Assembly: GCA_019058315.1 (NCBI GenBank)
Contig: JAHPZH010000002.1
Coordinates: 32,001-96,000, forward strand
DNA from: Candidatus Helarchaeota archaeon
GTDB lineage: Archaea > Asgardarchaeota > Lokiarchaeia > Helarchaeales > RDOG01
Length of the DNA stretch: 64,000 bases
Reading direction: 5' to 3'
In this document: piece after piece, positions 1-32,271 of the stretch
How positions within the stretch are numbered: position 1 is the stretch's first letter
How the letters are laid out: each line of letters opens with the position of its first letter
The notes under the pieces: model-generated
Told to the model about the DNA's origin: nothing
The model's database searches: none
Seen by the model: the letters and a program-made list of their open reading frames with translations, nothing else
Made by a program: the position numbers and the translations under genes

Positions 1-793
1 TTAAAAAGTCCACATAAGATCCGGAAATTAGAAATAATCCAGCAGTATGAATAGGAACATAACCTTTTATGTAATATTGATAAAGCTCTCGCAGATAACT
101 CCTGATTTCATTGTTTATTATAGCAACTTTTCGCAATCTTGAATCTGTTATAGTAGATCCGGATAAATTCTCTAATGTTGTTATGAAACGATTAAGTTCA
201 GAAATAACTAAATCTAATAAATGAGGGTTAGAAGAATCTCCATAAGGTTTCTCCAGATAAAAAATTGGTTTATTTTTACTAATTCGTTCATAAAATTTTG
301 CAAAATGCACACAGTAATTCCCCTCAAATCCCCCCATAATTAAATCAATGATTGGTAAATTCCTCATAAACGCCCCATAACAGATACGTGTCTGAACACA
401 AGTGTCCATGTAAAATTCTGCTTTCTCAGCTACGTTTATTAGATTAATAAATATCCTTGAGAATTCGTCTCTGTTGAAACTATCTATAAATGCATTTGAC
501 ATTCGATCTTCATTTTGAATATAATATCGTATGAAATGTCTAAGGATATGGAGACGATTAAATACATGTGCAACACCATAATATTGCTCGTAAGGAAACC
601 TCGCTAAGCGTGGTAGGAAGACTGGAAGCGTGTTTTTTGCAGCAAATACTAATTGCATGGGTGGTAAAAACCCCCCAACTATCTTTTTTCCGCGTTTATG
701 GGCATTTGCAATTTTAGAAGGACCAAGTATATATTTAATACCAAGATCAAGCATGCTTTGCATCGAAAAATCTTCAATTTGGTGATTAATCAA
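1..793 (-). CDS. 2-hydroxyacyl-CoA dehydratase family subunit (HgdA/FldB/BcrB-like), partial, runs off the window start
   Basis: Not in the ORF track; translated manually: ...KRGKKIVGGFLPPMQLVFAAKNTLPVFLPRL...DTCVQTRICYG...GNYC..., clearly paralogous to 5800..7035 (KKIVGICLPPCDLIYAFQNTLPIFPLRL; DQCVQIRTIYG). Start is TTG at 793 (overlapping the upstream stop) or ATG at 763. Confidence 0.8.
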   Translation of the reverse strand, partial: MINHQIEDFSMQSMLDLGIKYILGPSKIANAHKRGKKIVGGFLPPMQLVFAAKNTLPVFLPRLARFPYEQYYGVAHVFNRLHILRHFIRYYIQNEDRMSNAFIDSFNRDEFSRIFINLINVAEKAEFYMDTCVQTRICYGAFMRNLPIIDLIMGGFEGNYCVHFAKFYERISKNKPIFYLEKPYGDSSNPHLLDLVISELNRFITTLENLSGSTITDSRLRKVAIINNEIRSYLRELYQYYIKGYVPIHTAGLFLISGSYVDFL

Positions 794-1896
794 ATAATCA
801 TCTCCAAAAATGCCTCTATTCTGGTTTGAATTTGTCCAACAGTCGATTCAGCATAATCTCTGTCTAAGTCCAGAACTGGTATATTTTTTTCAGTCATTTC
901 TTTCCGGAAATCCGTCTTTAAATTTGAATATGAGTCACAGAATTTTAAGGTATGATTGATTATGCCAGAAGCTCGAAATTTTTGATATAACTCTAGAATT
1001 ATCGGAATTCGGGAGTCAGGAATCATTCGACCACATAGATTTCTACAAAGATATCGTGTAGCGAGGGCTCTAAATGGATCTGAATCTGTTATATTCACAT
1101 CTTCAAGAAAATAATCCGAAGAAAAGCAGAGATCATCTGCTACTACCAAACCCCCACAAAGTTCTTCAATAGTCTCTATTAGAGGATCTCCAAGAGTTAT
1201 TACGCTCCCTGTTAAAAAAATTCGGGTTCCCGAATGATTTGGAGGGTTTTTCCTTATTTGCTGTAAAAAATCTTGTAATTTTGGTATCATAAATTTAGGA
1301 CCTAATAATAGAGCTTGACAGACTAATTTGTGAATAGTTTGTCCACAAACTGGAGGATTGGGCTTCTTGCGAAAATCATTTATTTCTCTAAAAAGTGAGC
1401 GAAGTTGATTATATTCTTTGATTGCGACTAAAAGATTTTTGGTAGTAATTTTATTTCCTGTTAATTTTTCAAGATAATTTGTTAGTTTATGTAATTCATT
1501 CAAGTAATAATCAAAAACTAAACCGGTACTACGATGTGGGATAATTATTGGCATAGAAGGTATTTTAAAATATTCTAAATAGTTCGAAACATTCTGAACT
1601 CCATTACAGAATGTTCCAACAATCATTGTATCTATTAATGAATAAAGTGGATGTTGTTTCTCTAAAAAACCAAGAGTTGCTCGACCAAATGGACAAGTTG
1701 TAGCTGATAAATATTGATCTCCAATCTCTTGTTCATCTTCTCCTCCTAAAATAAGTCTTAATGGAATTGCACCTGCAGCTAACACCAATTCATCGGGGAA
1801 AATTCCATGTTGAACAACACCAACGATTTTCGAGCCCTCATCTTTATAATTTTTTAGGACTTCGATTGTCTCCTTTATTATTATTTCTATACTCAT
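790..1896 (-). CDS. 2-hydroxyacyl-CoA dehydratase family subunit (HgdB/FldC/BcrC-like)
   Basis: PDELVLAAGAIPLRL, CPFGRA, GGLVVADDLC, LKFCD and the C-terminal GQIQTRIEAFLE signature. Confidence 0.88.
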   Translation of the reverse strand: MSIEIIIKETIEVLKNYKDEGSKIVGVVQHGIFPDELVLAAGAIPLRLILGGEDEQEIGDQYLSATTCPFGRATLGFLEKQHPLYSLIDTMIVGTFCNGVQNVSNYLEYFKIPSMPIIIPHRSTGLVFDYYLNELHKLTNYLEKLTGNKITTKNLLVAIKEYNQLRSLFREINDFRKKPNPPVCGQTIHKLVCQALLLGPKFMIPKLQDFLQQIRKNPPNHSGTRIFLTGSVITLGDPLIETIEELCGGLVVADDLCFSSDYFLEDVNITDSDPFRALATRYLCRNLCGRMIPDSRIPIILELYQKFRASGIINHTLKFCDSYSNLKTDFRKEMTEKNIPVLDLDRDYAESTVGQIQTRIEAFLEMII

Positions 1897-1963
1897 GATT
1901 TATTTCTAAACCTTCTATAAATTTTCAAAATTATGTAAATATGAATATTTTAAGGTTATATAA

Positions 1964-2017
1964 TTATATATGTTCTAAAAATATTTCTATTTTTGTCCGA
2001 ATTTGGTCTAAATCGCT
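1964..2017 (-). pseudogene. 3'-end remnant of a 2-hydroxyacyl-CoA dehydratase subunit gene
   Basis: Minus strand reads SDLDQIRTKIEIFLEHI*, versus SDLEQIRTRIEAFLETI* at the end of 4683..5792. The codon just upstream is TAA where the intact gene has CAA. Confidence 0.75.
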
Positions 2018-2145
2018 TTATCGCTAGATCTGTTGTTAATCGTCAATTTTTTTAATTTCTTTAGTAATTCTATTTAGACTACAAGTTTGAAAGAATTTGT
2101 CAAGAATCATCTTTTTATTCAGCAAAGACTATTTAAATTACTAAT

Positions 2146-3468
2146 TTGTTTAGAGAAATTATTTACTTCCTATTAGATACCTCAGATTTATTTCAATTAG
2201 ATAGGATGTCATTTAATATGCATGAAAAAAACCTACCTTATATAGTTAATGCGGAATTAATTAGTTCGGATGAAGCGAAACAGGTTAGACGTGAAGCATT
2301 AAATGAATTAAAAATACTTTTGAAAAAAATGACTGCAGATTTAACAAAATTAACAGTTGCTGGTAAAAAAAGCAGTCAAATGAATCTTAATGCATTAAAA
2401 TCGATACAAAACAAATTGGAGGTTCTTAGAGAAGACACAGAGAAAGCTGAAGAGGATAGTTTAAACACCAAAAAGTGGATAGGACAGATCAAAATAATAA
2501 TGAATCTTTTTAATCAAATCAACGATGAGGAATTAAAACCTTCTTTAATTGAACCTGAGACCAATGTATTATTGGTCCAATTTAAGATTGCCTTAATTGC
2601 TGATGCGAATATCATTATTAATAATCCAGATAAGGCTCTAATTGATTATAAGGATTTCACCTTCTCAGGTGAATATGAACGTCTCGGAAAGGAGTTCCAA
2701 ACGTTATTCCCTAAATTTTTTGGGTATCGAGTGGAAATAGATTCCAGATTCCATGGCTTTTCAGTTGATTTGGAGGGAAGTCCTCCAACTATCAATGCTA
2801 TAATAGAATCACCCGTAAAGGCAATCGAACCACTAATAATAGAATTTCTTAATTGGCAACTACGTAAGATTGGGTTTACAATGATATTTGAGTTCACTAT
2901 AATAGACCAAAATGGGATGATTTGTGATATTGATTTTATCGATTCTGAGGATCCTCTTCAAACAATCATAGAATATCAGCAAGAACAAGTCGAACCATCG
3001 AAGATCGATGCAAAGAATCTGAATAAATTCTTAATAGGTCAGTTGAAAACGGAAGTAGATAATAGTTGGAAAAAAACGTCTTATGAAAGAGCAGAGTTTT
3101 ATCCCCCCGCTGGTAAGATTACCATAAAGTCTGTAGGTCAATGGTTGTGGATCAAATCTCAGGTCATATATGGCGGGGTGCGCTGGGATCCTTCAACGGA
3201 TAGGTCTGGTGGGGATTTTGAATCGACAGAAAGATGGTATGATTGGGTCGGGTTCGCAAAATCCGCACCTAAAAAAGTCTCCCACTCTGAAGAATTGGAT
3301 AAATGGGCAGAAATCAAAACCAGTTATTATATTCACAATCTTCTCCATGAAGGACGTAAGATTATCGAAATTACAGAAGGAGGAGAGGTGAAAATTCAGG
3401 TTGATATATTTCGATATCCAAATGTCGAATCTAGTTATGAACAAATAACGTTGAAAAAATCCGAATGA
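2146..3468 (+). CDS. hypothetical protein with N-terminal coiled-coil
   Basis: 440-aa ORF with no recognised family; true start may be ATG 2206 or 2218. Confidence 0.6.
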   Translation: MFREIIYFLLDTSDLFQLDRMSFNMHEKNLPYIVNAELISSDEAKQVRREALNELKILLKKMTADLTKLTVAGKKSSQMNLNALKSIQNKLEVLREDTEKAEEDSLNTKKWIGQIKIIMNLFNQINDEELKPSLIEPETNVLLVQFKIALIADANIIINNPDKALIDYKDFTFSGEYERLGKEFQTLFPKFFGYRVEIDSRFHGFSVDLEGSPPTINAIIESPVKAIEPLIIEFLNWQLRKIGFTMIFEFTIIDQNGMICDIDFIDSEDPLQTIIEYQQEQVEPSKIDAKNLNKFLIGQLKTEVDNSWKKTSYERAEFYPPAGKITIKSVGQWLWIKSQVIYGGVRWDPSTDRSGGDFESTERWYDWVGFAKSAPKKVSHSEELDKWAEIKTSYYIHNLLHEGRKIIEITEGGEVKIQVDIFRYPNVESSYEQITLKKSE

Positions 3469-3528
3469 TTTTTTTTGTAATTACCAGATTCTAGATTAGA
3501 AACAATGGTTAAAATCAAAAAAGATATA

Positions 3529-4644
3529 TTATTCTATTATCTTTTTATGTTTTTTCATTCTTTTACCTGCTAGATATAGTATACAGCAACCTGGGCAGAT
3601 AGACATTAATTTGTGTTGATTCATATAAGAACGGAATATTCGATATTTTTCCCCGTTCCAAATCTCTTCGAAACTATGCTCGTGTAAATTACCCATCACC
3701 AAATCATAAAAAATATGACATGGAGCCAAATCTCCTGAGGCTGTAATATCGAGTCCTACCCAAGGAACTGGGCAAGAACGGTATTTATCGGTCATTTCGT
3801 CCCAATTAGCCCCGAGATAAGCTTTAAGATTTTCAGGAGAGAAGGTGGGTGGTAAAAATAATGTAAATTTTCCGAGTTTTTTTAATTGTTTATTTACTTT
3901 ATTTGCTTGCCGAGCTAGCTCTTTTGTGTCCATTTTATTAAAATATTCAGGAGAACGAACAAATCCTCGCCAATATTCTTCGCTTGTAATCCCTAATTCG
4001 GATCTAAGCATCTCTGCATAAGCAATTCCCATCTTTTTAGTAATAAAATTCTCCATCTGAATTGTTATCCAATTGATAGCTGAAAGATCAAGATCTTTAA
4101 GGAAAAATTGCTCTATATATCGGTAATTTTCAGGAGTCACTGTATAAATGATGCTAATTAAGGGACTTTGTTTTCCAGAATCTTGTTTTTCTTGCTGAAG
4201 GGCTTCAATACCTTCAATAGCCTTACTATAGCTACCATTCCCACGTTGCGAGTCATTTACTTCACGAGGACCGTCAATGGAAACTCTTATAGAATCGAAT
4301 CCAGTTTGAACAAGCATAGCTGCGTGTTTTTTCAAGAGTGTACCATTTGTTGGAGTATCTAAAAATGATCCTGCATCCTTCATTTCTCGAATTATTTCTT
4401 CCAAATGGGGATGCATAAGAGGTTCACCACCAAAAAAACTATAAGAGGGTTTGGCTGGGGCTAAATCGTGAACAACTTGTTTAATTAAATCAAATTCTAG
4501 AATTAATGGTTTTTTATTAGATTCGGGATTAGAATAACAACCTTTTTCACCCCAAAAATAACACATTTTACAACGAAGATTACAAGTCTCCGTAAGTTGG
4601 ATTGCAAGATTTTTAGGTAATTTGACTTTTTTATTTTCTGTCAT
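3529..4644 (-). CDS. radical SAM protein with C-terminal SPASM/Twitch domain
   Basis: CNLRCKMC (CxxxCxxC), GGEP, TNGTLL, VSIDG; C-terminal CPVPW...PCH...GNL...CPGCC. Confidence 0.9.
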   Translation of the reverse strand: MTENKKVKLPKNLAIQLTETCNLRCKMCYFWGEKGCYSNPESNKKPLILEFDLIKQVVHDLAPAKPSYSFFGGEPLMHPHLEEIIREMKDAGSFLDTPTNGTLLKKHAAMLVQTGFDSIRVSIDGPREVNDSQRGNGSYSKAIEGIEALQQEKQDSGKQSPLISIIYTVTPENYRYIEQFFLKDLDLSAINWITIQMENFITKKMGIAYAEMLRSELGITSEEYWRGFVRSPEYFNKMDTKELARQANKVNKQLKKLGKFTLFLPPTFSPENLKAYLGANWDEMTDKYRSCPVPWVGLDITASGDLAPCHIFYDLVMGNLHEHSFEEIWNGEKYRIFRSYMNQHKLMSICPGCCILYLAGKRMKKHKKIIE

Positions 4645-4682
4645 ATTATTTCCGTAAAATTAAATTTTAACAAATTAATATG

Positions 4683-5792
4683 TTATATAGTTTCTAAAAA
4701 TGCTTCTATTCTTGTTCTAATTTGTTCTAAATCGCTTTGGGCATATTCTCTAACAACGGTTAGAACGGGGAATTCTAATTTTTCTTGAAAATACTCTTTA
4801 AATGGATAATTTTTCAGTTGATAAGGATCACAAAATTTCAAGTTGTAATTAATAATACCTAGAGCATTATAAGCTTCGTAAATACCTTTAATAAACTCAA
4901 ATCTTGATGAATCTGGATACATTCTTGCACAAGGTATTTTGGTTAAATATCTTTCAGTTAGGGATTGAATTGGATCGCTATTCATTACGACATTATCCCA
5001 ATAATATCTCATTCCACTGCAAATATCATCTCCAACAACTAAACCATCTAAACTTTCAATAAATTCTACTATATGATCCCCAAATGCAATATTACTTCCA
5101 GAAATAATGACTCTTTTACCATTTAAATTTCGTCTTTTATTTACTAATTGAGGAAAAATCTGACGTAACTTTTGAAGCATCTCTTGTTTTTCATTAAGAA
5201 AAGTCTCTTGGATCAGATATTGACTCTCAGTTCCAGAAATTGGTGGATTATTATTCATTCTTAACTCGTTTATTTTTTTTAACTCCGTCCTCAACTCATT
5301 ATACAATCTTATCGAATTTAAAATATCATCATTTGATATTTTTGAACCAGTAAAAATTTCAATATTTTTCTTAAAAAGTAAAATTTCTTTATAGAAATAT
5401 TTCATTGATGGAGCATCTGTTTTTCTGGGAGTGTCTAAATTAATAACTGGAATTTTTAGATATTTTGAATAATCTTGAATTGACTCCATGCCGTTACAAT
5501 AATTTCCGGTTATCAACAAATCACATTGCGAATAAAGTGGGTGATTATCCAATAAAAATCCCAATGTTGATCGGGCATAGGGACAAGTCCCGACCGACAT
5601 ATATTCTCCACCTTTTAAAACCATATCTTCAACCCCCCCTAAATTTAATCTTAAAGGAAATGCTTTTGAGGCATATATGATTTCCTCAGGGACAAATGAG
5701 CATGTAAAGCCTATAATTTTAATTCCTTCCTTTTTCAAGGTTCGGATTTTTCCAACATATTCATTTAATGATGGCTTTTCAATTATAGGCAA
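4683..5792 (-). CDS. 2-hydroxyacyl-CoA dehydratase family subunit (HgdB/FldC/BcrC-like)
   Basis: CSFVPEEIIYA, CPYARS, GDDICSGMRY, LKFCDPY, QIRTRIEAFLE. Confidence 0.9.
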   Translation of the reverse strand: MPIIEKPSLNEYVGKIRTLKKEGIKIIGFTCSFVPEEIIYASKAFPLRLNLGGVEDMVLKGGEYMSVGTCPYARSTLGFLLDNHPLYSQCDLLITGNYCNGMESIQDYSKYLKIPVINLDTPRKTDAPSMKYFYKEILLFKKNIEIFTGSKISNDDILNSIRLYNELRTELKKINELRMNNNPPISGTESQYLIQETFLNEKQEMLQKLRQIFPQLVNKRRNLNGKRVIISGSNIAFGDHIVEFIESLDGLVVGDDICSGMRYYWDNVVMNSDPIQSLTERYLTKIPCARMYPDSSRFEFIKGIYEAYNALGIINYNLKFCDPYQLKNYPFKEYFQEKLEFPVLTVVREYAQSDLEQIRTRIEAFLETI

Positions 5793-5799
5793 ATTTTAT

Positions 5800-7035
5800 T
5801 TACCCCGTTAACAATTCAATAAATGCTCCAACTCGAGTCTTTAATTGGTCTAAATGCTCTCCAAACATATAAAAATCATTTAAAAGCACGGGAATTCCTA
5901 ATTCTTCCTGAAGCTCATCCTTATATAATCTTGCAGCAGGTGAGAATCGTCTACAACCCCAACATGAATTGTAAATTACCCCATCTATTTTAAAATCTTT
6001 AATAAGCTTTTTAGCAAAACGTAATCTGGGCTGTGTTCTCCAACTATGATAAATTTCTAATTGATGCTTAGCAATATTATTTCTAATATCACCTCGGATA
6101 TTAAGATCTACTTGTGGATATACCCATTCATACCTCATTGTTACAGCTATAATTATACCCCCCAAAGTTTCAACTATGTCTGGTAATTGAGGTTCCATGG
6201 TTCCATTTCCTGCGATTAAAATTCTAGGAGCTTTATCATCAACAATACTATCTCCTCTATCTATTTTTTCAGCCATCTCATCATAAAGGTCATTTAATAA
6301 CCGTTTTAAGAATTGAGGGTCGGAAAACCAATCAAATATTCCATAATTTAAAATATTTATAATTGTGCTAGCATGAATTGGAATAACTTTATTTTTTAGC
6401 AATTCATAGACTTTCCACCATTTGCTTCTAATTTCATTTGACATTAAAACAGAATCTCTTAAATCATCATCAGATGGGCGAAATCCGGTCAAATTTACGA
6501 GTCTTTCAAATAATAAGTCAAATTCATCCCTCATTTTTTCAAAATCATGTTCTCTAGTTTTATGAGGTGCATCAACAAGCTGGACTGGAAGAAAATTTTC
6601 GTTAATTATTTCCCAAATTTTGGTTTGTTTATCACATGTTTGGGGTCCAATCCAAAAATCCATTAGATCCTTTGTAAGTAATATACAACCGTAAATAGTC
6701 CTTATCTGAACACATTGATCAGTCTCACATCCAAATGCTTCCCCTTCATTGACTGCATTTTTAAGACTAATATCAGCATTACTCAAAGCATCAAAGGTTC
6801 CCAAATGTAATCTAAGTGGAAAAATCGGTAATGTATTTTGAAAAGCATAGATTAAATCACAAGGAGGTAAACATATACCTACAATTTTTTTACCTTTACG
6901 CCTATTTTTCTTAATAAAAGATCGTGTATTTATCCAATGACTGATTAGATCCCTAACAGCTTTAAAATTATTAATATCCTTCATTATCCCTAATTCTGTT
7001 TCTATATCTTTAAACAAATCAGTCAAATGTAACAT
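5800..7035 (-). CDS. 2-hydroxyacyl-CoA dehydratase family subunit (HgdA/FldB/BcrB-like)
   Basis: TCD, IDGVIYNSCWGCR, LGIPVL, QLKTRVGAFIELL. Confidence 0.85.
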   Translation of the reverse strand: MLHLTDLFKDIETELGIMKDINNFKAVRDLISHWINTRSFIKKNRRKGKKIVGICLPPCDLIYAFQNTLPIFPLRLHLGTFDALSNADISLKNAVNEGEAFGCETDQCVQIRTIYGCILLTKDLMDFWIGPQTCDKQTKIWEIINENFLPVQLVDAPHKTREHDFEKMRDEFDLLFERLVNLTGFRPSDDDLRDSVLMSNEIRSKWWKVYELLKNKVIPIHASTIINILNYGIFDWFSDPQFLKRLLNDLYDEMAEKIDRGDSIVDDKAPRILIAGNGTMEPQLPDIVETLGGIIIAVTMRYEWVYPQVDLNIRGDIRNNIAKHQLEIYHSWRTQPRLRFAKKLIKDFKIDGVIYNSCWGCRRFSPAARLYKDELQEELGIPVLLNDFYMFGEHLDQLKTRVGAFIELLTG

Positions 7036-7180
7036 AAGAATTACCTAATTGTTAACAATTTTTTCAGTTTTTTAGAATATTGTTTTATAATCGTAAATTT
7101 TCTTAGTATATAACATAAGTAAAATCAATTTTACCTCTTTCATCAAAAATTTTTATATAATGCGCATTACAATAAAAATA

Positions 7181-7294
7181 ATGATGAGTTATAACAATCA
7201 TTTATCAGAAAAAGAATTTGAAGATTTCTTCGAGAAGGGGTTAGAAGATTTAAAGAAAGATCTATCTAAAGGAAAAAATAACGTTAAAAAATGA
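7181..7294 (+). CDS. putative 37-aa small protein
   Basis: MMSYNNHLSEKEFEDFFEKGLEDLKKDLSKGKNNVKK*; amphipathic-helix-like, with TATA-like TTTTATATAA at 7151-7160. Confidence 0.4.
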   Translation: MMSYNNHLSEKEFEDFFEKGLEDLKKDLSKGKNNVKK

Positions 7295-7324
7295 TTAAAT
7301 AAAGATTCATATATGATTTACCTA

Positions 7325-8308
7325 TTATTTAGGATATTTATGCTTTTTTTCTTTAGATTTGTATATTATTCTTGCTAATTCTTTAAAAGCTTTTTCAACA
7401 TTCTCCCCAGTCTTTGCTGACGTTTCTATATAAAGATAACCTTTTTCTTTTGAAAAGTTTTCTGCTATTTCTTGTGAGACTTTACGTTCAAGATCAATTT
7501 TATTACCAACAAGTAGAACTGGAATTTCACCGAGATTCTCATAAAGTTCATTTATCCATTTAGGAATATGTTCGAAACTTTTAGGATCTGTAACATCATA
7601 AACCACAAGACATCCTGAGGCTTCTTGATAATACATTTTTCGCAAAGTTCCATATTTCTCCTGCCCTCCAGTATCCCATACATTCATTTTTGCTGTAATT
7701 TTTTCAACACCTGGCATAGGTTCAGTTCTATAATAGTGAAATTGAAGTTCCTTTACACCAAAATCTACGCCAAGTGTACTTTTTAAATCCTTTTTAAAAT
7801 AATCGTCAGTAAATCTAACTTTAATAGCTGTTTTTCCAACACCCGAATCCCCTGTTTCAATAATCTTGAAATTGAATACACTTCGGGCAACTATCATCGC
7901 TTCTCTTTCTGCCCATTCTTTGATTTTATCACCTTTTATAAGGTCATTTAAATCTTTTTCTAAATTTGATGGTTGTATTATTAAAAAATATCCTTTTTCA
8001 TAGGTATTTTCACTCAAATATTTTAAAGCGTCTAAATTTAAATCCTTGATATCTCCTGTTACAGGGCTATTGAATGTCACCATTCCATGTTCTGACTCAA
8101 TTGCAGCAAAAGGTTTTCCTTTTTCAACTCGATCTTTTTTAATAAAATCAATATCTCTTGCGTTTCCAATAAAATCAATTCCTAACTCATTTAACCCAAT
8201 TTTGCCATTTTCTGGATTAATATAAACGTGTTGAATTGTATAGGCTAAATCATCAGGAATTTCGTAACGTCCATCACCAACAATAACCATTTCTTTCTTT
8301 TCTCCCAT
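7325..8308 (-). CDS. fusion of a glycine-cleavage-H (lipoyl-carrier)-like domain and a Rab-like small GTPase
   Basis: N-terminus IPDDLAYTIQH...IGL...GKPFAAIESEHG...SPVTG...YEKGY matches the GcvH pattern. C-terminus has G1 GDSGVGKT, LGVDF, G3 WDTGGQE, G4 NKID, G5 ETSAK. Confidence 0.85.
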   Translation of the reverse strand: MGEKKEMVIVGDGRYEIPDDLAYTIQHVYINPENGKIGLNELGIDFIGNARDIDFIKKDRVEKGKPFAAIESEHGMVTFNSPVTGDIKDLNLDALKYLSENTYEKGYFLIIQPSNLEKDLNDLIKGDKIKEWAEREAMIVARSVFNFKIIETGDSGVGKTAIKVRFTDDYFKKDLKSTLGVDFGVKELQFHYYRTEPMPGVEKITAKMNVWDTGGQEKYGTLRKMYYQEASGCLVVYDVTDPKSFEHIPKWINELYENLGEIPVLLVGNKIDLERKVSQEIAENFSKEKGYLYIETSAKTGENVEKAFKELARIIYKSKEKKHKYPK

Positions 8309-8498: not shown

Positions 8499-9341
8499 AT
8501 GTTTGGTTACATAATTTTACGAGACATTCCAAAAGAACAAGCTCAATTAGATTTATCTATTTATGAAATTAAGGGAGGTTTTCGTGGCTTTGCAGAAGTT
8601 TCACCAGGAATTCATTATGTTAGCGTTGATGTGGGTGGAAAGATGCATAAGGGGTTCTGGTGCTATTTAGAACCTTCCAGTGTAGTTGTAAAAGTTTATG
8701 ATTACGAAAACGATGAATTTAAAGATGATACTTCTGAAAATGAGGAGCAGTTTTCCAACATGGCTTTAAGTGGAGCTATGAATCGAGCTCTTATTCCGGT
8801 CATGCAACGTAATGCAAAGATGTCAACTGAATGGTTAAAATTAGTATCTCACATTAAAAAAAATAATTTTCCGATATCTCTGAATAAAGAAACACCCATG
8901 GAACCTCCTGAAAATCTCTCACCAGAAGAAATGTCAGAATACTATCTTAAAACACACAAATCTCGTTTTGAACAAGCTTTTTATGAAACTCATGGTGGAA
9001 ATAAAGAGAAATTTTTAGCCGAAATCCAATTTGCATTTGTACGTTCACTTGTTCATAAACCAGATGATGAGGCATTAGAGCGATGGTTGCATCTCTTACA
9101 GTCCATTTATAATGCAGGAGAGAGAAGTATTGATGCTGAACCTGAATTATTCCCTTTAATTATTGATATAATAATAACACAATTCAAAATTCTACCAGAT
9201 GATATGTTTTCATCTAATAGCAAAGTTATAAATCGTGTTCAATATTTAATCGAAGATATGATTGATACGGGAATTAAAGATGTTAAAGAAAAAGCTAAAG
9301 AGTTTGCTGAATATCTAAAATCAAGGGGTGTTTCAATTTAA
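8499..9341 (+). CDS. AAR2-like protein (A1 cistron-splicing factor / U5 snRNP assembly factor family)
   Basis: LDL..YEI.GGFRGFAEVSPGIHYV...GFW resembles the AAR2 N-domain (F.G.K.IPPG.HF). FLAEIQFAFV...ALERWLHLLQ resembles the AAR2 C-domain (LLGELQFAFV...W..LL). Confidence 0.7.
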   Translation: MFGYIILRDIPKEQAQLDLSIYEIKGGFRGFAEVSPGIHYVSVDVGGKMHKGFWCYLEPSSVVVKVYDYENDEFKDDTSENEEQFSNMALSGAMNRALIPVMQRNAKMSTEWLKLVSHIKKNNFPISLNKETPMEPPENLSPEEMSEYYLKTHKSRFEQAFYETHGGNKEKFLAEIQFAFVRSLVHKPDDEALERWLHLLQSIYNAGERSIDAEPELFPLIIDIIITQFKILPDDMFSSNSKVINRVQYLIEDMIDTGIKDVKEKAKEFAEYLKSRGVSI

Positions 9342-9376: not shown

Positions 9377-9643
9377 ATGAGTGAAGATAAACCACGATTT
9401 TTTGTTATCAAAACAGTAAAGGGTAGAGAAAATGCAGTTTTGGATAACATAATGGAAAGCAGATTGAGAGATAGCATAATTGCGGTCTTAATTCCAGCGA
9501 CGTTACATGGATATATTTTTATTGAAACTGAAGATCCCGCTACTATCGTATCAGAATTTCCAAAATTCTCTATTAAGACTCGTCTTATTTCTCAAGTGCA
9601 ATTTAAGGATATAGAAGAGTTCATAATAAAATATAATTTTTAA
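9377..9643 (+). CDS. stand-alone Spt5/NusG N-terminal (NGN) domain protein
   Basis: FFVIKTVKGRENAV...IIAVLIP..LHGYIFIE...V.F.DIEEFI; ends before any KOW domain. Confidence 0.75.
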   Translation: MSEDKPRFFVIKTVKGRENAVLDNIMESRLRDSIIAVLIPATLHGYIFIETEDPATIVSEFPKFSIKTRLISQVQFKDIEEFIIKYNF

Positions 9644-30759: not shown

Positions 30760-32271
30760 ATGACGACAATTACTAAAACTAAATCAAATATTGTTGAAAC
30801 TAAATCTGGAAAGGTTCAAGGTTATTCAGAAAATGGAGTACAAATATTTAAAGGCATTCCTTATGCCGCTCCGCCTATAGAAGAATTGCGTTTTTGTCCT
30901 CCCGAACCGAGAGAACCTTGGAAAGATGTGTTTGATGCTACTGAGTATGGAAATTATGCTATGCAAGGCTTTAACGCACTTGAAATACTTTTTGGGAAAA
31001 TTCCATATAAAGAAAGTGAAGATTGTTTAAACCTTAATATCTGGACACCAGATACAGATGGAAAAAAACCTGTAATGGTTTGGATTCATGGTGGTGCCTT
31101 TACAATGGGAAGTGGAGCTGATCCAATATATGAGGGCTCAGCTTTAGCCCGTCGTGGTAATATTGTAGTTGTAACAATAAATTATCGCCTTGGAGCTTTA
31201 GGTTTTCTCTATATTCCTGACTTAACTGTCAATATGGGAATGCAGGATCAAATTGCGGCCTTGAAATGGGTTAAAGATAACATTGAGGGTTTCGGAGGTG
31301 ACCCTAAAAATGTCACTATTTTCGGTGAATCTGCAGGTGGAGCATCAGTTTACTGCTTGCTTGCTATGCCAGCTGCAAAGGGGCTTTTTCATCACGCTAT
31401 TCCACAAAGTGGAGTATTCGGTTTTGATCCAACAGCTGGTAAGAAAAGTTCAGAGTATTTAATGAAGAAGTTAAAAGTCGAACCCGGTGATATTGACGCA
31501 TTACGCAAAGTTCCTGCGAAAAAAATCATGAAAGTTCAAGATAGAATTACTCTAAGACCAGGATTTTCAGATATTCTCGCATTTTCTCCAAGAATTGATC
31601 CTAAAACACTACCAAAACATCCAGTAGAAGCGATACGAGATGGATCTGCGAGCAAAGTAGATTTATTAATAGGAACGAATGAACATGAGATGAAACTTTT
31701 CGTAGCCATTGACCCTAGCGTTAGAAATATGGATTTAGATAAATTATATGAATTCATACAAGGAATGGGATTTGATGAAAGCAAAACCAAACAATTAATT
31801 AAGGTATATCAAGAAGCTAGAAAAGGTGTATCTTCAACAGACCCCGATGAATTATTTGCTGCTATTGGAACTGATTATACCTTTCGTATTCCTGCACTTC
31901 GTATAGCTGAATCACACAATAAGAATAATAAAAATACCTATAATTATTTATTTAAATGGCCTTCACCGGCGTTAAAAGGTGTTTTGGGCTGTTGTCATGC
32001 AATTGAAATACCTTTTGTATTTGGCACCCATAAGCTTCCAAAAATTGACGAATTTGTGGGTAAAGATGCTGCTGTTGAAGCTATCAGCGAAAAGATGATG
32101 GATGCTTGGATTGCATTTGCTCGAACTGGAAATCCAAACAATGATAATATCCCAGAATGGCCCCCATATGATGAAAAAAAGAGATCTACTATGGTCATTG
32201 GTAAAGAAATCAAAGTTGTTAACAATATTTTTGAAAAAGAGCGTAAGGGTTGGGATGATATAACTTTATAA
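30760..32271 (+). CDS. type-B carboxylesterase (PnbA-like), copy 1
   Basis: FKGIPYA, SEDCLNLN, WIHGG, GESAG, CHAIE. Confidence 0.95.
   Translation: MTTITKTKSNIVETKSGKVQGYSENGVQIFKGIPYAAPPIEELRFCPPEPREPWKDVFDATEYGNYAMQGFNALEILFGKIPYKESEDCLNLNIWTPDTDGKKPVMVWIHGGAFTMGSGADPIYEGSALARRGNIVVVTINYRLGALGFLYIPDLTVNMGMQDQIAALKWVKDNIEGFGGDPKNVTIFGESAGGASVYCLLAMPAAKGLFHHAIPQSGVFGFDPTAGKKSSEYLMKKLKVEPGDIDALRKVPAKKIMKVQDRITLRPGFSDILAFSPRIDPKTLPKHPVEAIRDGSASKVDLLIGTNEHEMKLFVAIDPSVRNMDLDKLYEFIQGMGFDESKTKQLIKVYQEARKGVSSTDPDELFAAIGTDYTFRIPALRIAESHNKNNKNTYNYLFKWPSPALKGVLGCCHAIEIPFVFGTHKLPKIDEFVGKDAAVEAISEKMMDAWIAFARTGNPNNDNIPEWPPYDEKKRSTMVIGKEIKVVNNIFEKERKGWDDITL

Follow-up and report, generated by a model that had tools for sequence, protein, structure and literature searches.

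Asgard archaea encode dozens of eukaryote-like small GTPases whose cellular role is obscure, and the accessory domains fused to some of them are among the few clues to their wiring. The present analysis concerns one such fusion, encoded on the reverse strand of a stretch of 64,000 nucleotides from a Candidatus Helarchaeota archaeon (positions 32,001 to 96,000 of contig JAHPZH010000002.1, assembly GCA_019058315.1; hereafter the window), in which a complete domain of the glycine-cleavage H-protein (GcvH) type, devoid of the lysine that carries lipoate, precedes a Rab-like GTPase. The explanation favoured here, with a confidence slightly above even, is that the protein, a member of a family of Lokiarchaeia-type Asgard archaea, acts as a GTP switch on which an apo H-fold serves as docking module.

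The family has been met before. In a survey of Promethearchaeum syntrophicum MK-D1, 74 small GTPases were modelled, some of them with "various domains of unknown function" (Tran et al. 2024, Commun Biol 7:273, PMC10933270); in the Rab-clade alignment of its Supplementary Fig. 5, WP_147661646.1 and WP_147662223.1 are labelled "GCVHG", with no further discussion or functional data there. A search of the accessible literature found no main text combining Asgard archaea, small GTPases and glycine cleavage or GcvH, the label in the supplement being the only mention. By alignment, the window gene is a member of this same family, which is catalogued, not studied; the architecture had been put forward in the initial annotation as undescribed, a claim that has to be withdrawn. 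The likeness to the MK-D1 proteins extends to the domain order, the length, the long interswitch hairpin, the conserved switch-I face and the absence of the Lys (Gln and Arg at the site); the window protein differs from them in belonging to a separate Hel-type clade with its own duplication into paralogues A and B, in carrying His at the site, in its basic instead of acidic tail, and in having no longin, Hdr or SIS neighbours.

The N-terminal half is to be compared with GcvH (PF01597) and with LbpA, the lipoate-binding proteins of sHdr systems, the LbpA-sHdr dependence having been established in sulfur oxidisers (Cao et al. 2018, PMC6067878). The fold is complete and the core motifs P-D-x-L-x-Y..H, G..G, S-P-x-x-G, N and Y..G are kept in the window domain; unlike GcvH and LbpA, it lacks the lipoyl-Lys, shows a 3-residue deletion after the conserved Asn and is fused to a GTPase. 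With respect to LbpA in particular, the window gene has neither the Lys nor an hdr cluster, whereas stand-alone relatives on the same genome (C5, 641 kb) have both. Retention of the H-fold with loss of the Lys inside a larger protein is likewise seen in prokaryotic multidomain proteins with GCV_H domains; in these, however, the partner is a redox or receiver module in place of a small GTPase, and most of them are non-Asgard proteins. Abitram/Simiate (FAM206A), which is eukaryote-only and GcvH-derived (Derlig et al. 2013, PMC3859600), also uses this fold outside glycine cleavage, but without a GTPase; profile searches of the Atlas and the PDB with the N-terminal domain returned only GcvH and lipoyl/biotinyl domains.

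The C-terminal half shares G1-G5 and a RabF1-like L-G-V-D-F with the eukaryotic Rabs (Rab11, Rab8, Rab1, Rab27) and with the Thorarchaeota Rab 7EZB; in contrast to these, it has no C-terminal Cys or hypervariable tail, it carries an additional N-terminal domain and it matches RabF2-F5 only partly, so that the designation "Rab-like" is appropriate. A further comparison is offered by the pairs of GTPases and longin or roadblock proteins (MglA-MglB; Rab with Mon1-Ccz1, TRAPP or Fuzzy-Inturned), the longin fold being that of eukaryotic Rab guanine-nucleotide exchange factors (GEFs): a longin-like gene lies 3' of the fusion in nine sister-lineage genomes, but not at the window locus, and its fold assignment is a structural lead. 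Other Asgard Rabs are likewise "Rab-like", without a C-terminal prenylatable Cys motif, and the GTPase genes of MK-D1 generally lie outside operons with longin or roadblock genes (PMC10933270).

The Gene and Its Start Site

7325..8308, reverse strand: longest open reading frame, 327 amino acids
7325..8290, reverse strand: probable coding sequence of the fusion of H-fold and Rab-like GTPase, 321 amino acids plus stop
7328..7360, reverse strand: short basic C-terminal tail KSKEKKHKYPK, without prenylation Cys

All 35 homologues start at the equivalent of Met7, the second Met, with the pattern MV-I/V-V-G-D-G-R-Y, and a GGGAG motif is found 11 nt 5' of the ATG at 8290, the longest open reading frame beginning 18 nt farther upstream (8308); because of this shared start and of the motif preceding it, the true start is probably Met7, and the coding sequence 7325..8290. 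Pfam assigns residues 21-134 to GCV_H (38.7 bits, against a curated cut-off of 22.2) and residues 148-316 to Ras (169.8 bits). In the alignment of 36 rows that underlies the family comparisons, the C-terminal tail is basic in the Hel-type subclades only, and acidic (K-K-E-E-N-L-E) in the members of the Loki family.

The H-Protein Domain and the Lipoyl Site

7883..8290, reverse strand: N-terminal H-protein domain (GcvH/LbpA-type barrel-sandwich), residues 7-142, defined by Pfam, phmmer, structure comparison and a predicted local distance difference test score (pLDDT) of 82-97
8087..8089, reverse strand: codon of His74 at the lipoyl-lysine position, motif I-E-S-E-H-G, from the phmmer alignment
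7889..7927, reverse strand: C-terminal helix of the H-domain itself, acting as linker

The initial annotation had recognised a full H-protein-like domain with His at the position of the lipoyl-Lys, and independent comparisons agree with it on both counts. In addition to the Pfam match above cut-off, a phmmer search of the solved structures matches the 146 N-terminal residues end to end with H-proteins (1onl_A, E 6e-07, query 16-136 on chain 2-127), the query E-S-E-H aligning with the E-S-V-K of 1onl and 1dxm, which places His74 at the lipoyl-Lys position. An AlphaFold2 model was obtained from the 36-row family alignment (pLDDT 89; predicted template modelling score, pTM, 0.64), an earlier run on 9 sequences (pLDDT 42) having been discarded; in an exhaustive structural comparison (VIA), residues 9-135 of this model superpose on the pea H-protein 1dxm_A with a Z of 18.1 and a root-mean-square deviation of 2.1 Å over 125 of 131 residues, and the assignment of the N-terminal domain to the GcvH fold thus stands.

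The lipoyl site itself is remarkably permissive: across the 36 rows it is occupied by Asn (12), Ser (5), Gln (5), Lys (5, from 4 distinct sequences), His (3), Arg (3), Thr (2) and Ala (1), and the residue that follows is Gly in 32 of them. The fold residues P12, L15, Y17, H21, G32, G37, P60, P76, G79, N85, Y97, G100 and W126 (domain numbering), on the other hand, are invariant or near-invariant; since they are held fixed while the residue at the lipoyl site varies, the alignment indicates that selection maintains the H-domain and leaves its cofactor site free. As judged from its sequence, the H-domain of the window protein cannot be lipoylated and cannot act as a swinging-arm carrier.

In a maximum-likelihood tree, the Hel-type clade (support 100/99) divides into paralogue A (P0008, P0003, P0001, P0002) and paralogue B (P0009, P0004, P0005, P0007), a pair that the window adds to the catalogued family. 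Within this clade His is confined to the tip pair P0001 and P0002, the remaining six members having Asn; on this topology, His74 is a recent and unconstrained tip substitution. It had been suggested in the initial annotation that the His could be a phospho-acceptor, as in the PTS EIIA proteins; because the residue is recent and unconstrained in the tree, occurring in only three of the 36 rows with Asn in the sister sequences, the idea of a phospho-His relay fails and was rejected.

The wider proposal to which this idea belonged, namely that the H-fold senses or docks glycine-cleavage or lipoate enzymes (GcvT/P/L, ligases) with His74 receiving the phosphoryl group, is accordingly hardly to be credited. 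The His does stand exactly at the hairpin tip in place of the Lys, and four LplA-like ligase genes, which could in principle recognise the H-fold, are present in the window genome; however, Asn stands in place of the His in the other copy of this genome, the fusion adjoins no gene for a kinase or PTS protein, and neither GcvT (PF01571) nor GcvP (PF02347) gave a match in the window genome (94.3% complete, control genomes being positive), an absence that is provisional. Of the suggestion that a carrier fold has been repurposed, what survives is the non-catalytic module on a GTPase switch, with which the conserved fusion is consistent; its connection to one-carbon metabolism and glycine cleavage does not, GcvT and GcvP not having been found and the relatives being Hdr-adjacent and LbpA-like (see below).

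The Rab-Like GTPase Domain

7361..7870, reverse strand: Rab-like small GTPase domain, residues 147-316, from Pfam Ras and solved relatives
7829..7852, reverse strand: G1 (P-loop) GDSGVGKT, with G..GK(T/S) invariant across the family
7754..7834, reverse strand: end of the P-loop, α1, switch I and start of β2, K-T-A-I-K-V-R-F-T-D-D-Y-F-K-K-D-L-K-S-T-L-G-V-D-F-G-V, the most conserved part of the whole protein
7709..7738, reverse strand: 10-residue extension HYYRTEPMPG of the interswitch (β2-β3) hairpin, facing a gap in Rab11 and the Thorarchaeota Rab
7661..7675, reverse strand: G3 (switch II) DTGGQ with the catalytic Gln
7493..7504, reverse strand: G4 NKID
7412..7420, reverse strand: G5 SAK

Coordinates and alignments confirm that G1-G5 are intact, that an interswitch insertion of about ten residues is present and that the tail is basic and free of Cys, all of which had been read from the sequence beforehand; the switch I Thr is also in place. 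The closest solved relatives of this half are Rab11, the Thorarchaeota Rab 7ezb, Rab8A and Ypt31 (E 1e-36 to 1e-35), with which it shares 30-40% identity; residues 136-317 of the AlphaFold2 model are nearest to Rab3C, Rab27a and Rab9A (Z ~27, VIA), and the top Foldseek matches are Rab27B and Rab27A. By eye, L-G-V-D-F (F1), Y-Y-Q-E-A (F4) and V-V-Y-D-V-T (F5) resemble the Rab consensus, F2 and F3 having diverged. The interswitch surplus amounts to 9-10 residues with respect to Rab11 and the Thorarchaeota Rab, and its length is held within 2 residues in 27 of the 28 core full-length members; it is modelled as a long β-hairpin with two strands of 14 residues (pLDDT 71-85), an extended β2-β3 hairpin being a feature of Rab27 as well.

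Conservation is very unevenly distributed along the protein. When majority identity is taken per block of ten residues over 26 core members, it reaches 0.92-0.97 from the P-loop through α1 and switch I to the start of β2 and 82-88% in the G3 and G4 blocks, the N-terminal domain ranging from 0.37 to 0.77. Because the switch-I face is so conserved across the whole class and through several duplications, these values suggest that it has one common binding partner, which could be a regulator, an effector or the H-fold in cis.

The last of these possibilities leads to a purely intramolecular explanation, in which the apo H-fold would pack against the switch-I/interswitch face of its own G domain or of a second one, as an autoregulatory lid or a dimerisation element and without any external partner; this has a modest chance of being correct. 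The H-fold is always N-terminal and connected by a short helical linker of fixed length, the pLDDT is high across this linker, and the long β2-β3 hairpin and the hyper-conserved switch-I face co-occur with the H-fold throughout the family; yet the pTM of the model is only 0.64, and paralogues without the G3 Gln or the DxxG retain the N-terminal domain, which argues that this domain is not merely a regulator of hydrolysis. The paralogues in question are the divergent, long-branch members P0016, P0023 and P0024; with the H-fold and the P-loop kept, but the catalytic Gln of G3, the switch-II DxxG or both missing, these may be pseudo-GTPases fixed in one state.

The affinity of the G domain for Rab11/8/1/27 and the absence of a prenylation Cys could also be accommodated by an ordinary Rab-type regulator of membranes or cytoskeleton, in which the H-fold, as an adaptor for localisation or cargo, stands in for the prenyl tail that is missing, and the basic tail of the Hel-type subclades could add a weak affinity for membranes; this appears very improbable. 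A basic tail is not a constant feature of the family, and no lipid- or membrane-binding role is known for the H-fold, both points counting against this explanation. Moreover, the Asgard GTPases tested in HeLa cells showed no membrane targeting (PMC10933270), the "GCVHG" proteins lying outside the tested set.

Distribution of the Family and Authenticity of the Fusion

Doubts as to whether the fusion could be a singleton or an assembly chimera, both of which the initial annotation had kept in view, are dispelled by its distribution. The window genome (5.79 Mb, 12 contigs, 94.3% complete, 6.6% contamination) carries a second copy on another contig (P0005), 72% identical to the first and with Asn at the lipoyl site, and a word-indexed search retrieved eight proteins of the same architecture, with N-terminal domains 63-79% identical, from metagenome-assembled genomes labelled Helarchaeota, Promethearchaeota or Hodarchaeota. 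When a profile of the N-terminal domain was run over 400 genomes of the phylum, fusion-sized frames (293-364 amino acids, 88-127 bits, 1-3 copies per genome) were found in 14, including G129, G132, G134-G143 and G229, all of them in the window's own class; all the other matches are stand-alone GcvH-like proteins of ~145 amino acids scoring below 85 bits. The domain junction (~7880) is spanned by contigs from two other sediment-metagenome studies (X2, 7160-8159; X7, 7733-8121), by which an assembly chimera is excluded.

In total, more than 30 full-length relatives of the fusion are known, within one Asgard class (Lokiarchaeia-type). An exact look-up placed members in Ca. Lokiarchaeum ossiferum B-35 (three paralogues), in P. 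syntrophicum MK-D1 (two) and in Ca. Harpocratesius repetitus; the MK-D1 members WP_147662223.1 and WP_147661646.1 are 48% and 44% identical to the window protein and collinear with it over the full length. The presence of this class-wide family in the cultured P. syntrophicum and L. ossiferum makes it amenable to bench work. In one genome (L011, G138:C500), two different fusion paralogues were observed head to head, 176 bp apart (356-1324, reverse strand; 1501-2451, forward strand).

Origin of the H-Domain and Metabolic Setting

The window genome encodes, besides the four LplA-like ligases, four stand-alone GcvH-like proteins, all of which keep the Lys. The two nearest to the N-terminal domain of the fusion have Gly right after the Lys site (A-G-K-G), as in the fusion family, and form a divergent gene pair adjoining HdrC- and HdrB-like genes (L040, G000:C5:634000-650000), which suggests that lipoate is used in the LbpA/Hdr style in this archaeon; the same region also holds a gene for the β subunit of acetyl-CoA synthase and an open reading frame of 1804 amino acids. 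E-A-G-K-G is likewise kept by close stand-alone relatives elsewhere in the order and phylum, and two of the five examined (L043 and L045) adjoin Hdr-like genes, L045 being accompanied by TusA/DsrE-like genes as well. As the nearest stand-alone relatives sit by Hdr genes, an arrangement known for the LbpA of sHdr systems, the H-domain of the fusion looks more like the descendant of an LbpA-like carrier than of a glycine-cleavage H protein.

The loss of the Lys is apparently not peculiar to the GTPase fusions. Among the 150 best relatives of the N-terminal-domain profile in a library of 1.84 billion proteins, 68 of 83 proteins of stand-alone size retain the Lys, against only 6 of 67 longer ones; the longer, Lys-poor set includes a protein with three GCV_H domains, a flavin adenine dinucleotide (FAD) oxidase, Fer4 and CCG (P0025), one with a receiver, GCV_H and an HdrC-like part (P0049), combinations of Fer2, Fer4 and GCV_H, and membrane-anchored forms. 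From this survey, embedded H-folds are typically non-carrier modules, Lys loss being the rule once the domain lies inside a larger protein, and H-folds without the Lys seem to be in wide use as accessory modules of redox proteins. The generality of the loss argues for a docking or structural role, and lessens the rarity of the Lys-less half of the present fusion.

Gene Neighbourhoods

Fifteen loci of 12-17 kb each were compared. Window paralogue A lies between a gene for an HGD-D dehydratase component and a divergent AAR2 homologue; the genes flanking its orthologue in L007 encode a methyltransferase and a DUF1616 protein. Downstream of paralogue B there is a Flavin_Reduct gene in both of the examined genomes (L030, L008); this neighbour was discounted as functional evidence, since it is part of a long syntenic block of close relatives. 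In one lineage of the Loki family, which includes MK-D1 WP_147661646.1, the fusion gene invariably converges on two SIS-domain genes in tandem (~360-380 amino acids; L026:8992-11198 on the reverse strand, L027, L028, L031, L032), often with RtcB and M18 aminopeptidase genes on the other side; given this convergent orientation, the SIS pair was set aside as a co-transcribed partner.

In nine genomes (G135-G143, MK-D1 and L. ossiferum among them), the fusion gene of a second Loki-family lineage is followed after 16-205 bp by a co-directional gene of 160-170 amino acids:

L021:9305-9802, forward strand: longin-like gene
L025:7629-8144, reverse strand: longin-like gene, which is also found downstream of the fusion in L011, L013, L014 and L016-L019

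The ESM Atlas model of its product resembles Fuz/Mon1/HPS1-type longins (Fuz_longin_1) and clusters of eukaryotic Sybindin (TRAPP) proteins, with template modelling scores of 0.63-0.78, and the protein is a candidate GEF or GTPase-activating protein (GAP) partner of the fusion GTPase. Its best homologue in the window genome scores 37.7 bits and is encoded on another contig.

In the same second lineage, HdrC-HdrB-HdrA-MvhD adjoin the fusion in L021 and L025; relatives in L. ossiferum, MK-D1 and G129 are found next to HdrCBA-MvhD. Together with the Hdr genes found beside the nearest stand-alone relatives (those of the window genome, L043, and L045 with its TusA/DsrE-like genes), with the Lys-less GCV_H domains fused to CCG, iron-sulfur (Fe-S) and FAD or to receiver and HdrC-like modules (P0025, P0049, P0053, P0063), and with the established LbpA-sHdr dependence, this has led to the consideration of a redox-coupled switch: the H-fold would dock on Hdr-type (HdrB/CCG, HdrC) complexes as LbpA does, and the GTPase would read or control an energy-metabolism complex, not membrane traffic. 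This is unlikely. No Hdr gene is near either copy of the window genome, the nearest of its ~45 CCG (HdrB/D-like) genes being more than 300 kb from either; with such a number of CCG genes per genome, ~8% of loci are likely to show such adjacency by chance; L021 and L025, being orthologous, do not count as independent loci; and the lineage with the SIS pair has no Hdr neighbour.

A Putative GTP Switch with a Docking Module

According to the reading preferred here, of a GTP switch with an apo H-fold docking module, the fusion protein would cycle between its GTP and GDP states, and the H-fold would serve as a protein-protein docking module, being neither a cofactor carrier nor part of a phospho-relay. 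Through this module the switch may be attached to a partner whose usual targets are domains resembling lipoyl carriers, the best candidates being redox modules of the Hdr/CCG type or lipoate-handling enzymes; alternatively, the H-fold may lie against the G domain of the same molecule. Factors acting in trans would probably control the nucleotide cycle, and the longin-like gene directly 3' of the fusion in the nine sister-lineage genomes is a pointer to them. The cofactor-less carrier fold, the hyper-conserved switch-I face and the longin-like neighbour of the sister lineages would together make up a concrete module of GTPase, regulator and adaptor.

Several observations weigh against this interpretation. 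The pTM of 0.64 leaves the relative placement of the two domains unfixed. The lipoyl site, free of Lys in most rows, bears it in a minority (five of the 36), so that some members may still be modified; L. ossiferum has a Lys-bearing member (UYP45712.1 cluster). As to the neighbourhoods, window paralogue A and its L007 orthologue have no neighbour in common; the longin-like neighbour is absent at both fusion loci of the window genome, and the protein gave no Pfam match at E up to 5 and no sequence match in the PDB, its fold call being a lead; the Hdr adjacency, seen in 3-4 of the 15 loci against ~1.2 expected (~45 CCG genes per 5.8 Mb), is not significantly above chance in a sample of this size.

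A bolder version, rather improbable at present, would make the apo H-fold a decoy of LbpA/GcvH-type carriers, docking the switch on Hdr-type (CCG/Fe-S) complexes or on lipoate-handling enzymes, with a longin-fold exchange factor, in an Asgard-specific pathway whose eukaryote-like small GTPase would read or gate the redox and energy state of the cell; if true, this would be a prokaryotic precursor of GTPase signalling of metabolic state, as by Rag/Rheb, and not of vesicle traffic.

Other Genes Close to the Fusion

The AAR2 homologue, which contains both Pfam AAR2 domains, lies at 8499-9341 on the forward strand, divergent from the GTPase gene; in eukaryotes AAR2 is an assembly factor of the U5 small nuclear ribonucleoprotein. 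It is followed after 35 bp by a gene at 9377-9643, on the same strand, for a protein of 88 amino acids that consists of the Spt5 NGN domain only, without KOW. Downstream of the GTPase gene, at 790-7035 on the reverse strand, there are three paralogous genes for proteins like the D component of 2-hydroxyglutaryl-CoA dehydratase (368, 369 and 411 amino acids, the last scoring 180 bits for HGD-D), with unrelated open reading frames between them.

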